Source: a virus (Duplodnaviria > Caudoviricetes). Taken from it: a stretch of 64,000 nucleotides of DNA. The translations under genes were made by a program, and so were the position numbers. Below, piece by piece: positions 3,909 through 64,000 of the stretch. The notes beneath the pieces were generated by a model, which worked only from the letters and a program-made list of their open reading frames with translations, was not told where the DNA came from and made no database searches. Within the stretch, counting starts at the first letter, position 1; every line of letters starts with the position of its first letter. Location: IMG/VR virus record IMGVR_UViG_3300021431_000086, positions 61,932 through 125,931 of that record, one strand, 5' to 3'.

Positions 3909-6900
3909 TCATGTAGTTATGTCGTCAAGCCCAAGAGTATATCTATCATAGTAGCCACGAGTAGTTGAAGAAATAGACCATGCAATAATTTTAGTGCCAT
4001 TATCGTCAAACTCCTTACATTCAAGAGTTATATAATCCGTCGTCGGAATTGGGTCGCCGACAAAGTATGCTTCTTCTGGATTTACATTGTTTATGGTGTT
4101 CGCATTTTCAACTTCCTCATAAATTCCACGAATATATAATGCTGGGCCGCCCTTTACGGTTGAACTTCCTGTATATGCAGATGCACCATAAAAAGACAAT
4201 GTTATTTTAGTTCCGAGCAATTCCCGTGCATCATTAGCCATTTCCCCAATAAATTTGTTTAGGTAATGAATCCAATCGGGATTATTAAGTACATTCTCTC
4301 CATCGGCCGTATGATAAGTTTCGTCATATAACATTGTTCCTACATTAGATGACCCACCGTATGAAGCAGTTATGTCCGATTTGAAATTTCTATATAATCC
4401 AAGTCCATTGTAGGACACATTATTCTCTTTCGATGGAAACCAAGACATATATTGAGAACGCCCATAAATATCATTTGATAGGGGTATAAAGAATGGAAGG
4501 TTTATATAGAAGTCTCCTGAAACTTGACCATTAAAGTCTGCATAATCTTCTACTGGTAAACCATCGTCTAAATACCCGTACCCCGTTGGGAATACATATA
4601 CATCGCCTTTATATAATGTTCCAGAACCGCTATAATAATATTGATTCCCATCTGGTGTCGCATAAAAGGCAAAACTTTGTCCAAGATTTTTATATTGTAT
4701 AGTATTCTCATATTCCCCCGTCCATGCACTAACTTCCCTCTTCGTAAAGTCTTTTATATTAAACTCATGAAGAATAGTAGTCTTATGGGTAACAAAACCG
4801 CTAAAATTTCCTTTCATTGCATCCACCGTGCCATCGGCAAACACCTTGAAGGTGGCGCTGTCGGCATCCTGCCCACCGCTCCACAGATAATACTGTTTGC
4901 CATCGCCGTCCACACGGTTGCCCATTCCGGCGAGGACAGTTCCGAGGTTGTCCGTAATCACAAAGTTAGAGCCTGTGAGCATCCGTATGTAGGCATTCTG
5001 GGCAATGAGGTAGGTGAAGAATGCGCTGAGCGCATTGACAGAGATGGGCTGGAACGGAGCGCGTGTCAGATTCAGGTCTCCGGCAAGCGTCCCACTGCCC
5101 GTTGTTGTGAGATATTGAGTCAATTCCCCAGGTGTCAGGAAAGTAGCCGCCAAGTCCAAGTCGCTGTCGCTCTGATAATGGAACCCGTAGATGCACTCAT
5201 ACGCCATGTAGCCGCTCTGTACCAAACTCTGCGGATAGCCAACAACGATGTAGTCTTTATATCTCACGGCGACGGCAGTCTCAGTCCCGTCAAAGAAGTT
5301 CATGCCATTAGGAATGACATTCTGATGCACGCGGACAACGGGGCCAGCAAGCCCCTTGTCTCCCTTGTCACCCTTGTCTCCCTTTGCCGCCTTGATAAGT
5401 GGAATCTCCTTCTTGATGAGGTAGGTGTCCACCATCTCGTCAGGATTGGAGGCGTTGATACTTGATGCTGCGAACAGCTCCACTACATCAACCGAACTCT
5501 CAATCTCCCTGTAGGGCATGGAGAAGATAGCAAGGTTTGCACCGTTGAAGAGCAGTGTTCGCGTGTCACCCGTCCGCTTATACACCCGGCAATAGCATGG
5601 GAAGGCAGCGCGGACACCGCCGTTGTCGGTATAGAATCTGATGGAGCCGCCAAACTCTCCCTTGTCAGTCGCCGTGTCTATGGCGATGTAGTCCTTCTCC
5701 GTCTGGCAGATGTAGTTCACGCCCGTCTCACCATACACACCGATGACGTGTGGAGCTTCTGTCTCTTTGACTCCATCTGGCAAGATGGCATCCTCGTAAT
5801 GATCCCCGATATCGTCTATCGTCCCGTCGATTAGAATGGGATATTGTAGCGTCTTGCGCCACATGTAAGGGCGGAACTCGTTAAAGAAGTATGCGCTTTC
5901 TTCGTTGGAAAAGAAAGACTGGTCCGGGTTCCAGTACACAAGCTCCGCGCCCATTCCAACACCGCCTTCATTCAGATCCTTTGTTTCGCTTGTCGTATAA
6001 TAATGTATGTCTCGTGTTGCCGGAATGAAATTGACGGTCACAATTGCAAGTTCCACATTTGTATTATTGACAACCAGATGTACATTAAGACTCTTCCGAG
6101 ATGCAAATGCGGTGATAGGAAGAACTGCTTTTCCGGTGGTTGCGCCGGAGAAAACAAGCGGAGTGTCATCGCTACTATCCTCGCTGTCAACGGGATCATA
6201 GAAAAGTGCAAGGCCGGCCGTCCTGAACCATGCCTCATTAATATAGAATACACTTCCGTCCTGGGCAATAGAGCGGATAAAGATGTTGATATTGTTTTCC
6301 GGGATATATCTTCCAGAGGTGTCGTCGTAGCTTACGGTCCCCGAGGATAGTTCAATCTCGAATTTTTCCTTTGTCTCGGCAATTATAGTAATGGTGCCTG
6401 TGGCAATTGTGGAAAAACCGGTAATCTCCGACTCGTCGGCAACGCATGCTGATATATAGAATGTTGCAGAAACAGAGGCCGAGAAGTCGTCGGTTCCGGA
6501 ACTGCCAGCCTCATGCTTCAGCTCTATGCTATCTGTAAATCCATTAGCCTTACTTGCGTTCCACTGGTTGTCCGTGTTTGTATTGCCGGTATTCCTTGTA
6601 ATCATCCAGCGGTCAACACTCGTAGTTGCTGCCTCGTCAAATCCTTTTATCAGAACCGGACTAAGAATGATACTCCCCCCCCATCTCAGGTATGGAACGC
6701 CTGCATCCATGCCCTCACTTCGTATTTCCACGCGCAGCGGCAGAGAGTCGGGGTCAAGGCTCCATTCCTTGTTGTACTCGTCTGTGCCAAGTATTCCCGT
6801 GTCAAGGTTCACGGTACGCAGGTTGTTTTCTGGAAGACTGACCTCCCCCATGCGGACATACCAGTTGTCAGGGTCTATTGTGCCGTAATAATCCCTGCTC

Positions 6901-7238
6901 TCGCCGTCGGTGGTTACGCATGGGTATTTGTCCGTCCACTTCGACCCTCTCATCTCCATCGGCGCAAATACCAGGTAGGCATTGCTATTGTCGGACTTTG
7001 AGAGGCGGGCATAGATAGTGTAGGGCTTCCCACTTTCCGCCAATCTTCTGTTGCGTCCTTTCAGTGTCCACTCCTGATATGTGCTATCCACCATACCAAT
7101 ACCCGCGCGTCCAGACCACACCTTGATTTTGGCGCCATTCGCTATGTACACAGACAAATCGTTGTAAGAGTTGTTGGAGTTGGGCGTGATACTGATTGCG
7201 GATGGGGCTATATAGTGAACTGGTGATGTGCGTGGCAT
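3909..7238 (-). CDS. Large tail/baseplate-fibre protein with short collagen-like segment and AT-rich variable C-terminus
   Basis: ~1109 aa from ATG 7238 after an A-rich leader; KGDKGDKGDKGLAGP repeat; beta-rich; composition shift below ~4800. Confidence 0.7.
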   Translation of the reverse strand: MPRTSPVHYIAPSAISITPNSNNSYNDLSVYIANGAKIKVWSGRAGIGMVDSTYQEWTLKGRNRRLAESGKPYTIYARLSKSDNSNAYLVFAPMEMRGSKWTDKYPCVTTDGESRDYYGTIDPDNWYVRMGEVSLPENNLRTVNLDTGILGTDEYNKEWSLDPDSLPLRVEIRSEGMDAGVPYLRWGGSIILSPVLIKGFDEAATTSVDRWMITRNTGNTNTDNQWNASKANGFTDSIELKHEAGSSGTDDFSASVSATFYISACVADESEITGFSTIATGTITIIAETKEKFEIELSSGTVSYDDTSGRYIPENNINIFIRSIAQDGSVFYINEAWFRTAGLALFYDPVDSEDSSDDTPLVFSGATTGKAVLPITAFASRKSLNVHLVVNNTNVELAIVTVNFIPATRDIHYYTTSETKDLNEGGVGMGAELVYWNPDQSFFSNEESAYFFNEFRPYMWRKTLQYPILIDGTIDDIGDHYEDAILPDGVKETEAPHVIGVYGETGVNYICQTEKDYIAIDTATDKGEFGGSIRFYTDNGGVRAAFPCYCRVYKRTGDTRTLLFNGANLAIFSMPYREIESSVDVVELFAASSINASNPDEMVDTYLIKKEIPLIKAAKGDKGDKGDKGLAGPVVRVHQNVIPNGMNFFDGTETAVAVRYKDYIVVGYPQSLVQSGYMAYECIYGFHYQSDSDLDLAATFLTPGELTQYLTTTGSGTLAGDLNLTRAPFQPISVNALSAFFTYLIAQNAYIRMLTGSNFVITDNLGTVLAGMGNRVDGDGKQYYLWSGGQDADSATFKVFADGTVDAMKGNFSGFVTHKTTILHEFNIKDFTKREVSAWTGEYENTIQYKNLGQSFAFYATPDGNQYYYSGSGTLYKGDVYVFPTGYGYLDDGLPVEDYADFNGQVSGDFYINLPFFIPLSNDIYGRSQYMSWFPSKENNVSYNGLGLYRNFKSDITASYGGSSNVGTMLYDETYHTADGENVLNNPDWIHYLNKFIGEMANDARELLGTKITLSFYGASAYTGSSTVKGGPALYIRGIYEEVENANTINNVNPEEAYFVGDPIPTTDYITLECKEFDDNGTKIIAWSISSTTRGYYDRYTLGLDDITT

Positions 7239-41700: not shown

Positions 41701-41702
41701 AA

Positions 41703-41795
41703 CAAAAACCGCCCCTCGCTATCACAGCGAAGGACGGCAAAACTCAAAATCACTATAGTTATGAAAACTATGGTGTGCTTTCACGCGCACACGCA
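41703..41795 (-). ncRNA. Candidate 3'-end sRNA B with anti-translation-start sequence and terminator
   Basis: Two hairpins, AUAGUGAUUUUGAGUUUUG, then GCCGTCCTTCGCT-GTGAT-AGCGAGGGGCGG-TTTTT. Confidence 0.55.
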
Positions 41796-54706: not shown

Positions 54707-54777
54707 AGGCGTATATGTTTAGGGTTATTTGTATTTTATAGCCCTCCATTACGGGAGGGCTGGGTAGGTCTTCTCTT

Positions 54778-54906
54778 AAAAAAGACTGCCGCGCTTCACA
54801 ACGCAGCAGCCCGTTCACTCAAAAATTCAAAAGTTATGTTTAGCAACATAATAGTTCCCGCAGTGCCATCAAAGGCATAGGTCGGTGCCACTGCGGGATA
54901 GTTTCA
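54778..54906 (-). ncRNA. Candidate sRNA A with anti-translation-start sequence and terminator
   Basis: -7-like AATCTTTG (54919-54912); hairpins TCCCGCAGTG/CACTGCGGGA and TTATGTT/AACATAA; CAUAACUUUUGAAUUUUUGAGUGA; terminator + U6. Confidence 0.6.
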
Positions 54907-54959
54907 CGATGCAAAGATTCTTCTTTTTCCGTGATTTCAGTGATTCCCGTGTAAGAATT

Positions 54960-59267: not shown

Positions 59268-59498
59268 TTACTTTTCTGCCATCCATACGTCACAGATAGC
59301 GATTGTGTGGATATAGTTGCCTTGTGCATCCAGCACGCGGAACTCGTTCTTCAGTTCCGTCTGCTCCAGCCTGCGATCGTCGGGCTTGTGTTCATAGATG
59401 CTTTTCATTGCGCTCTCGAAGGTGGGATATGCCCTGAAGGGCACCATAGTGATGTCGCCGTCCACCTTCTTTCCGACGAAATAGATTTTCTTGCTCAT
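59268..59498 (-). CDS. Hypothetical protein
   Basis: MSKKIYFVG..., 76 aa. Confidence 0.6.
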   Translation of the reverse strand: MSKKIYFVGKKVDGDITMVPFRAYPTFESAMKSIYEHKPDDRRLEQTELKNEFRVLDAQGNYIHTIAICDVWMAEK

Positions 59499-59668
59499 AA
59501 CAGTTTTGAATTTTTGATAGGTTGATGTTAGGGCAAAATGCCCCGATTTGTCACACACATTTAACAATTTTTAGAGTGTTCCTTGTAGCCAAAAATGACT
59601 ACCCACACAGCGGCGTAGATAGTCATGGCGATAAGAATGTCAGATAATGCTTGCATAGTGGTTAGGGG

Positions 59669-61127: not shown

Positions 61128-61331
61128 TCAGGCATAGAGTCCGTCGAACGGGTCCCATGTATATTGCACGGAATAGACGTGGGTGTCCTTGCCCATTTCC
61201 TCGCGCATGTCGGCCAGGGCCTGACGTGCGGCTGCACTTGTCTGTGATACACTTGCCCCTGCGATAGCGGCCATAGCGATGATAGTTGCACGCTTCTTGG
61301 CGGTGCTTGCCATGTTCTTTTTAGTTGCCAT
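61128..61331 (-). CDS. Hypothetical protein
   Basis: MATKKNMAST..., 67 aa. Confidence 0.6.
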   Translation of the reverse strand: MATKKNMASTAKKRATIIAMAAIAGASVSQTSAAARQALADMREEMGKDTHVYSVQYTWDPFDGLYA

Positions 61332-61369
61332 AATTTTGAATTTTGAATTTTTTGAGTTGCTTTTGAATG

Positions 61370-61406
61370 ATTTTGAGCGGAGCGGCCCCACAGATAGAGC
61401 CGCCCC
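61370..61406 (-). repeat. Conserved G-U-rich mRNA hairpin, copy 2
   Basis: GGGGCGGCTCTA...TGGGGCCGCTCC. Confidence 0.75.
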
Positions 61407-62972: not shown

Positions 62973-63605
62973 TTACGCAGTTTTTGCCATGATAACGGCA
63001 AATTGCTCTATAGTAATTTTGCCGTTATTATAGTCTGCGCGCGCTTGCTGCTGCTGCGCTTTAATGGCTGCGCGCTCTGCTCTCCTTGCTTTGCTCTCCG
63101 CTGCTCTCTGCGCTGCGCGCTCTGCTTTGTCCTGCTCTGCTGCAAATGGTGCAAGCACAGCACGGAACGCAGTGACATAACCGCATTCGCTTTTAGTAAT
63201 GGCGCGATACATTATAAGGGCGTTTGAATTGGTCGCGGATAGGCGTAATTCGTTACCTTTGTCCGTGACAATTTCCCCGTGCTGCAGCTCTGCAGCTGTG
63301 TGCTCTCCTTTATATTTGCAGAGATAGCAGGGACGGCCGAGAAAATCGGGGGTAAACATGCGGAGTGAAAATTCACGCTCCCCGCTTACTGCGCAGTACA
63401 TGCGCTGCAGGTCTCGCACGTTAATATTATCCATATATTCGTTTTTGCGTGCCATGCGGTTAAGAACATTAACGTAATACATATTACTACGTTCTTTAAG
63501 GTCTTCGCGTGCTCCCTTTGCCGCATTGTTAAGGGCAGTGCGGTTCGTCACTTGCTGCGCTGCTGCGCTGCTGCAAATCTCATTGAAATTCTTTTTGTTA
63601 GCCAT
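62973..63605 (-). CDS. Hypothetical protein, first early gene
   Basis: 210 aa, Ala-rich C-terminal helix, downstream of a consensus promoter. Confidence 0.7.
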   Translation of the reverse strand: MANKKNFNEICSSAAAQQVTNRTALNNAAKGAREDLKERSNMYYVNVLNRMARKNEYMDNINVRDLQRMYCAVSGEREFSLRMFTPDFLGRPCYLCKYKGEHTAAELQHGEIVTDKGNELRLSATNSNALIMYRAITKSECGYVTAFRAVLAPFAAEQDKAERAAQRAAESKARRAERAAIKAQQQQARADYNNGKITIEQFAVIMAKTA

Positions 63606-63676
63606 AACTTTTTAATTTTGAGTGAGTTAAACATTTTTTTTACTTTTGCAGTCCTTTTTTGTACTGCTTTCGGGGA

Positions 63677-63707
63677 CAAAGTTACGGCTTTTTTTCAAAC
63701 TAACAAA
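63677..63707 (-). promoter_or_regulatory. Consensus Bacteroidetes primary-sigma promoter driving the early region
   Basis: TTTG(63707-04)-N19-TAACTTTG(63684-77). Confidence 0.8.
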
Positions 63708-63825: not shown

Positions 63826-63870
63826 GGCATTTTCACTATATATTGATATATAATGTACCCGCGCGCGTAT

Positions 63871-64000
63871 GGCGGGGGGTGTCGGGAGGGTGTCGGGGTG
63901 TCGGGAGGGTGTCGGGGTGTCCTGATGATGGCGGGAGGGTGTCGGGGTGTCCTGATGATGGCGGGAGGGTGTCGGGGTGTCCTGATGATGGCGGGAGGGT
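63871..64000 (+). repeat. G-rich tandem repeats (30-bp unit, 3.3 copies, runs off the edge)
   Basis: cgggagggtgtcggggtgtcctgatgatgg at 63902, 63932, 63962 and partial at 63992; shorter units from 63871. Confidence 0.92.

Follow-up and report, generated by a model that had tools for sequence, protein, structure and literature searches.

Does a short minus-strand unit in the middle of a phage's early region (sRNA A) encode an RNA that silences the phage's own first genes? Phage and plasmid entry (leading-region) genes, including those for anti-restriction, need brief expression followed by silencing, and the means by which this is achieved in Bacteroidota are largely unknown. The window, i.e. 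the whole stretch of 64,000 nucleotides analysed here, corresponds to 1-63926, in reverse orientation, of a contig (C50; 125,820 bp) from a rumen-type Bacteroidaceae genome bin. Both ends of this contig overlap, making it a 125.8-kb circle of which the window is one half. Its genes include those for ParA, a Rep3-type initiator, a DnaC-like loader, an HTH regulator, an S49 protease and an M15 peptidase, no tyrosine integrase was found among them, and we infer that it is likely a phage-plasmid of a rumen Bacteroidaceae host, a reading made from sequence alone. Its relatives are IMG/VR virus records of 130-134 kb that are rated complete, or 114-122-kb contigs from rumen bins.

A canonical -7 box at 63684 is followed by a series of small minus-strand genes, about 40 in number, that extends from 63605 to 41816, and the terminator of sRNA A breaks up this same-strand run. 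We label these genes early or entry genes by inference, from their position and from the ArdA, ArdC-like and helicase-methylase genes found in the same region of relatives. The early regions of these phages hold many short A/T repeats. Just upstream of the first early promoter, at the circular junction, lie GC-rich tandem repeats (63840-64000) that could be a packaging or origin signal. A sequence-only reading of the window had proposed that a separately transcribed minus-strand unit with a -7-like box, two hairpins, a U-rich stretch and a terminator is antisense to several early starts and shuts off their translation.

A conserved RNA family in the early regions of related phages

The features of the unit are collected in Table 1. 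Its minus-strand fold is supported against shuffles (z = -5.8) and the U tract of the terminator faces the minus strand, as the sequence-only reading had claimed. Its other structural claims held in part: the -7-like box has one mismatch and is not conserved, the first of the two hairpins is better read as a three-way junction, and the second is lineage-specific, being present only in the window copy and in L145. The junction (5′ module) is closed by an outer stem of 8 bp, in which 54898-54891 pair with 54863-54856; its inner parts are a side hairpin of 2-3 bp, a 3-bp stem with a 6-nt T-loop-like loop, one unpaired purine and an A-C tail. Folding of the unit revealed no alternative anti-terminator structure. 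An additional 8-bp hairpin (54740-54761), not seen in homologues, follows right after the terminator, ahead of gene 54706.

Table 1. Positions in the window of sRNA A, the related unit sRNA B, the first early promoter and the sites best paired with the seed
Feature	Position	Strand	Basis
-7-like Bacteroidota promoter box, one mismatch to consensus, not conserved	54912..54919	(-)	sequence
5′ module, three-way junction	54853..54898	(-)	alignment, pair counts, geometry in 22 copies
Predicted processing site (inferred)	54898	(-)	
Weak lineage-specific hairpin, overlapping and partly masking the anti-AUG	54834..54851	(-)	folding
U-rich two-box seed, complement of target start codon and A-rich upstream stretch	54815..54838	(-)	alignment, pairing
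Intrinsic terminator with U tract	54778..54812	(-)	folding, sequence
sRNA B, second seed-plus-terminator unit without 5′ module, end of early region	41702..41768	(-)	model R2, 55 bits
Canonical -7 box, promoter of first early gene	63677..63684	(-)	sequence
Best target: start region of first early gene	63603..63625	(-)	rank 1/1,745
Second target: start region of gene 59268-59498 (76 aa, no family)	59496..59517	(-)	rank 2/1,745
Third target: leader of gene 61128-61331, two overlapping sites	61329..61380	(-)	rank 8/1,745

Collecting copies by DNA search, by a neighbouring marker protein and by covariance models yielded 22 copies of the 5′ part. Every one maps to the same region in a related phage, some of these phages being close kin, and 20 of the 22 continue into seed and terminator. 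These full copies share one layout, a covarying 5′ three-way junction followed by a variable spacer, a two-box anti-start seed and a terminator, with the seed retained while the spacer ranges from ~15 to 200 nt. Covariance model R1 found matches in 4/151 sampled genomes of the genus and 3/151 of the family, those inspected lying in phage-like regions. DNA pattern scans for sRNA A gave no match in IMG/VR, and in GTDB mostly chance matches plus known relatives.

Covariation strongly supports the outer stem of the 5′ module: 98.8% of cells are paired and two-sided changes (n = 15) occur in five of its eight pairs, against 0/500 shuffles and at most 58% in slid controls. All 22 copies parse into an 8-bp stem, one unpaired purine, a 3-bp stem and a 6-nt loop with an invariant G-A, where two loop-proximal pairs were required for the parse, and the pairs of the 3-bp stem interchange between G-C, C-G and wobble. 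The side hairpin is small and closed by an invariant GG/CC, and the A-C tail is present in 20/22 copies. Conservation and structure thus show a real, undescribed family of structured phage RNAs, while its expression is inferred. Rfam holds no gathering-level match to sRNA A (a Ref55 match covers the terminator only), and no description of it was found in the literature searched. Hammerhead- and HDV-like ribozyme folds were rejected on inspection of the 5′ module alignment, which offers neither a catalytic core nor a downstream P2 partner.

The copies also bear on how the RNA might arise. A -7 box lies within 45 nt in 4/22 copies and is absent from the other 18, and 17/22 start 5-13 nt past the stop of an upstream frame. 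Because so many copies abut an upstream stop and lack the box, release of the RNA by processing is likely, which refines the earlier claim of a separate transcription unit: in most relatives the RNA is probably processed and not separately transcribed, an inference made without RNA data. RNase P is a possible processing enzyme. The enzyme gauges the distance between a T-loop-like loop and the stem end, 12 positions (PMC11143913), and the 5′ module has this same spacing of 12 positions; the geometry is compatible, cleavage has not been shown and there are again no RNA data.

The 5′ module also occurs alone, right before a gene start, in three prophage-like early operons (L039:5556-5606, L040:6589-6638 and L209 about 1500-1551), where it may conceivably process or stabilise the mRNA. 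As it stands alone before genes in these other loci, we regard it as a portable part and not as the targeting element. In the G135 phage two tandem copies of the whole RNA (L035:6284-6410 and 6888-7014) flank one gene. sRNA B has a counterpart at G135:C8:13495-13562, and the phage starts that pair best with it (51079 and 61093) differ from the sRNA A targets. Nearly the same seed and terminator, without the 5′ module, lie before a restriction-modification or helicase-like gene in L188 (G024:C156:16577-16648). In host-genus chromosomes (L176, L177, L178, L180, L181, L190, L191) U-rich anti-start tails preceding a terminator are numerous, both downstream of tRNAs and at the 3′ ends of genes, gapA among them; they include FopS as well as tails with different seeds.

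Predicted pairing of the seed with early start regions

Seed box 1 complements the start codon and the bases preceding it, and box 2 complements an A-rich stretch further upstream. The complementarity that the sequence-only reading had listed held exactly, as 54815-54838 aligns best in the window with 63625-63603 (22/24, one gap), with 59517-59496 before gene 59498 and, partially, with 61357-61341 before gene 61331. The possibility that such matches are no better than those to random A-rich Bacteroidetes starts did not hold, as they beat host starts, anti-start decoys and shuffles. Compared over 1,745 start regions (1,588 from the host and 157 from the phage, with start codons assigned by a simple rule, so that the background is approximate), the seed pairs most strongly with 63605 (-24.8 kcal/mol), second with 59498 (-23.2) and eighth with 61331; host start regions average -8.2 (sd 2.6), the best reaching -19.6. 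A gene-blind scan of both strands of the whole 126-kb phage returned the leaders of 63605, 59498 and 61331 as its top three sites. Decoy seeds from the most A-rich real host starts equalled the seed in 1/250 cases for the best site and 4/250 for the top three, and shuffled seeds equalled the window seed in 0/250. Decoys were equal or better in 0-6/250 in three relatives, so that across four phages host anti-start decoys stand at 0-6/250 and shuffles at 0-1/250. Even with the cost of opening the weak local hairpin deducted, cofolding with the three targets gains -19.7, -18.7 and -18.6 kcal/mol.

The first early gene (62973-63605) encodes 210 aa with no family and no fold match, and the 67-aa product of gene 61128-61331 belongs to a family conserved in these phages. 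The target proteins have no Pfam, PHROG, Atlas or fold match, and their structure models are of low confidence. A strict two-box motif occurs in 1/1,588 host starts versus 2-4 of 24-41 early starts in six seed-carrying phages, and in 0/133, 2/112 and 0/100 of the other starts of seed-carrying phages. Two elements that carry the 5′ module only have the motif in 0/43 early starts, and their orthologous genes pair at -5 to -14. A site is present in just some of the early genes (about 2-6 per phage), and the proposed multi-target shut-off is supported in this narrowed form, with repression itself inferred.

Covariation of the RNA with its targets in related phages, which had been suggested as a check, was found. 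In nearly all relatives whose sequence suffices, the first early gene and the 61331 orthologue are among the best-paired starts, followed in some by the helicase-methylase, ArdC-like or ArdA gene. The orthologues of 63605, 59498 and 61331 are the top three of 15 starts in L211 despite diverged leaders, the site of gene 59498 being retained in its orthologue. Where other seeds have GA that of G180 has GG, and its own three targets have CC. Five relatives have a split seed with a 25-nt hairpin between the boxes; in G181, G182 and L157 box 2 is altered as well and the targets carry the matching box, and 61331 orthologues in split-seed phages have a longer spacer between the target boxes. These split seeds are likely the best argument for pairing at the RNA level, an inference again from sequence alone. 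Furthermore, the starts of one orthologous first gene in G135, G180 and G181 each pair best with their own seed, and over ten phages cognate seed-target pairs are favoured with a permutation p of <1 in 20,000 (0.00035 for box 2 alone). This p overstates the case, as the phages are related and comprise about three seed classes, and boxes and targets were picked by the analyst; among phages of the commonest seed class, seeds show no preference for their own targets. Exceptions are L157, whose called first gene lacks a site, and the partial or short loci L129, L131, L145 and L146, in which no target was seen.

A proposed delayed shut-off and its rivals

Bacteroidota initiate translation without Shine-Dalgarno pairing and rely on upstream adenines (PMC6847099), and FopS shows that an anti-start seed design represses translation in Bacteroides (PMC11697453). 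We consider it likely (roughly 0.72) that sRNA A is a trans-acting antisense RNA of ~120 nt that blocks translation of the phage's own first genes; the conservation, structure, complementarity and co-variation described above are shown, and expression, processing, repression and role are inferred. In the mechanism we propose, the RNA, whose gene sits midway along the early region in phage-plasmids of rumen Bacteroidaceae, would be freed from early transcripts and end at the terminator. Its source would be a weak promoter of its own in the window; most relatives would instead depend on a cut at the 5′ junction module, for which RNase P is a candidate. The two-box U-rich seed would pair across -20 to +3, covering the AUG and the upstream adenines, and would block translation of a small set of genes, among them the first early gene and the 61331-family gene; in relatives the set may also include ArdA, ArdC-like and large helicase-methylase genes. 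As the RNA is encoded behind the first genes, at a distance of 5-13 kb, it would build up later than they do and then shut them off, providing a delayed negative feedback in which entry genes are silenced once the phage is established. The RNA of a carrier might perhaps also block the same genes of a superinfecting relative with a compatible code.

A bolder reading, which we regard as no more than possible, is that the phage joined a portable tRNA-like RNase P module to a host FopS-type seed, whose targets became the phage's own entry and anti-restriction genes, marked by a private code in their start regions. The RNA would then time the shut-off and confer superinfection immunity specific to the seed class, without a repressor protein.

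Four rival explanations were weighed. First, the unit might be a cis-acting switch in which the seed pairs on the same long early transcript, or which attenuates downstream early genes, with no free small RNA. The position of 17/22 copies directly behind an upstream stop, the 18/22 without a -7 box and the interruption of a same-strand gene run by the terminator speak for it. However, targets in the phages examined lie 4.5-13 kb upstream, and some lie downstream of the terminator, at 59595 a terminator-like hairpin stands between the unit and two targets, and the lack of a visible anti-terminator fold also counts against a switch, which we consider unlikely.

Second, the U-rich stretch might be a protein site, either a decoy for RbpB/bS1 or a DNA operator common to early starts, with incidental complementarity. 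FopS RNAs of the same design do bind RbpB (PMC11697453), FopS-like tails are common in the host genus, and the G-U wobble asymmetry (12/616 vs 15/613 pairs) does not separate RNA pairing from DNA-level similarity. This too is unlikely, however, as the match includes the start codon in register, and the 25-nt hairpin that splits the seed in five relatives, whose targets have the longer spacer, would break a DNA site but not RNA pairing.

Third, lineage-specific start-region repeats might have been copied repeatedly, in inverted orientation, beside a terminator as a neutral by-product. Early regions are rich in short A/T repeats and such copying would likewise yield co-variation, but 20 copies agree in location, orientation and the structure of the boxes despite turnover of the spacer, none of the targets is copied exactly and a covarying 5′ module is attached, which makes this very unlikely. 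Finally, the seed might be the genuine start region of a + strand mini-gene (14 codons at 54836), as had also been raised; the + strand start context is good, but homologue frames of 3, 4, 7, 8, 14, 20, 25 or 87 codons share no peptide, split-seed copies place a strong hairpin within the would-be start region and the U tract faces the minus strand, so that we consider it very unlikely as well.

On the antisense reading, the family is a concrete candidate for an RNA mechanism that exploits Shine-Dalgarno-independent initiation, in which one seed would read a common start-region signature in several distant genes. New here is an undescribed covarying RNA module that is also found alone before genes. 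The arrangement suggests a simple rule by which synthetic repressors for gut and rumen Bacteroidota could be designed.

Comparison with known regulatory RNAs

The 5′ module resembles tRNA-like modules such as the tRNA-like domain of tmRNA and model RNase P substrates, with which it shares the 12 positions from T-loop-like loop to stem end (PMC11143913); the invariant GG in its side arm and its purine-C tail are further tRNA-like traits. In contrast to these modules it has a 6-nt loop, no anticodon arm and no CCA, and its cleavage is not shown. The P4 CI RNA is an immunity RNA that is processed from the early transcript with involvement of RNase P and acts via premature termination of its own operon. 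Both it and sRNA A are phage RNAs tied to the early transcript, although processing of sRNA A is inferred and no Rfam match links the two.

The sequence-only reading had named P1 c4 as precedent, and the likeness in role held. Like c4 (P1, P7) and c4-2 (RF02944), sRNA A would be an antisense RNA of a phage-plasmid with two recognition elements, and it too is located in the early region of such an element, a temperate phage or phage-plasmid. c4 is released from a longer RNA when RNase P cleaves at the base of its outer stem (PMC5320573, PMC11143913). Its antisense bases lie in cloverleaf loops, whereas the seed of sRNA A lies outside the junction, in the linker between junction and terminator. 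Moreover, c4 controls one adjacent antirepressor operon, whereas sRNA A would read several distant start regions; target sites in such an operon are not met here, the best sites being 4.5-9 kb off in unrelated genes. Rfam c4-clan models do not match sRNA A. They do find a genuine c4-2 RNA (L155:13310-13387, 48.9 bits) before a 99-aa ORF in a phage that also carries an RNA of the sRNA A family.

For the seed, FopS is the closer precedent. Like FopS/GibS of Bacteroides (RF04319, RF04182; PMC11697453), sRNA A has a single-stranded U-rich seed that begins with the anti-AUG and is followed by an intrinsic terminator with a similar loop. FopS/GibS repress by pairing around the start codon, the pairing position we propose for sRNA A, and a FopS copy in a phage has been noted (PMC11697453). 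The differences are a distinct seed, two boxes and the extra 5′ junction module, and the best targets are the phage's own genes and not host transporters. A sigma-ABfr promoter directly before the seed, a FopS feature, is not found, as the 5′ module precedes the seed and a -7 box is near only 4/22 copies. The RF04319 covariance model gave no match to sRNA A at E up to 10 or 0.5, and the FopS R1' seed sequence is absent from it, the seed differing after the anti-AUG (that of L146 looks intermediate). As FopS was detected in the host genus (54-77 bits) and c4-2 elsewhere in L155, both negatives have positive controls. The seed-terminator model of our family also picks up host FopS copies and similar 3′ tails, which points to a shared ancestry of the seed-terminator half. 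sRNA A is a member of neither family, like c4 in its inferred role and like FopS in the design of its seed, and it connects this host design with phage self-regulation.
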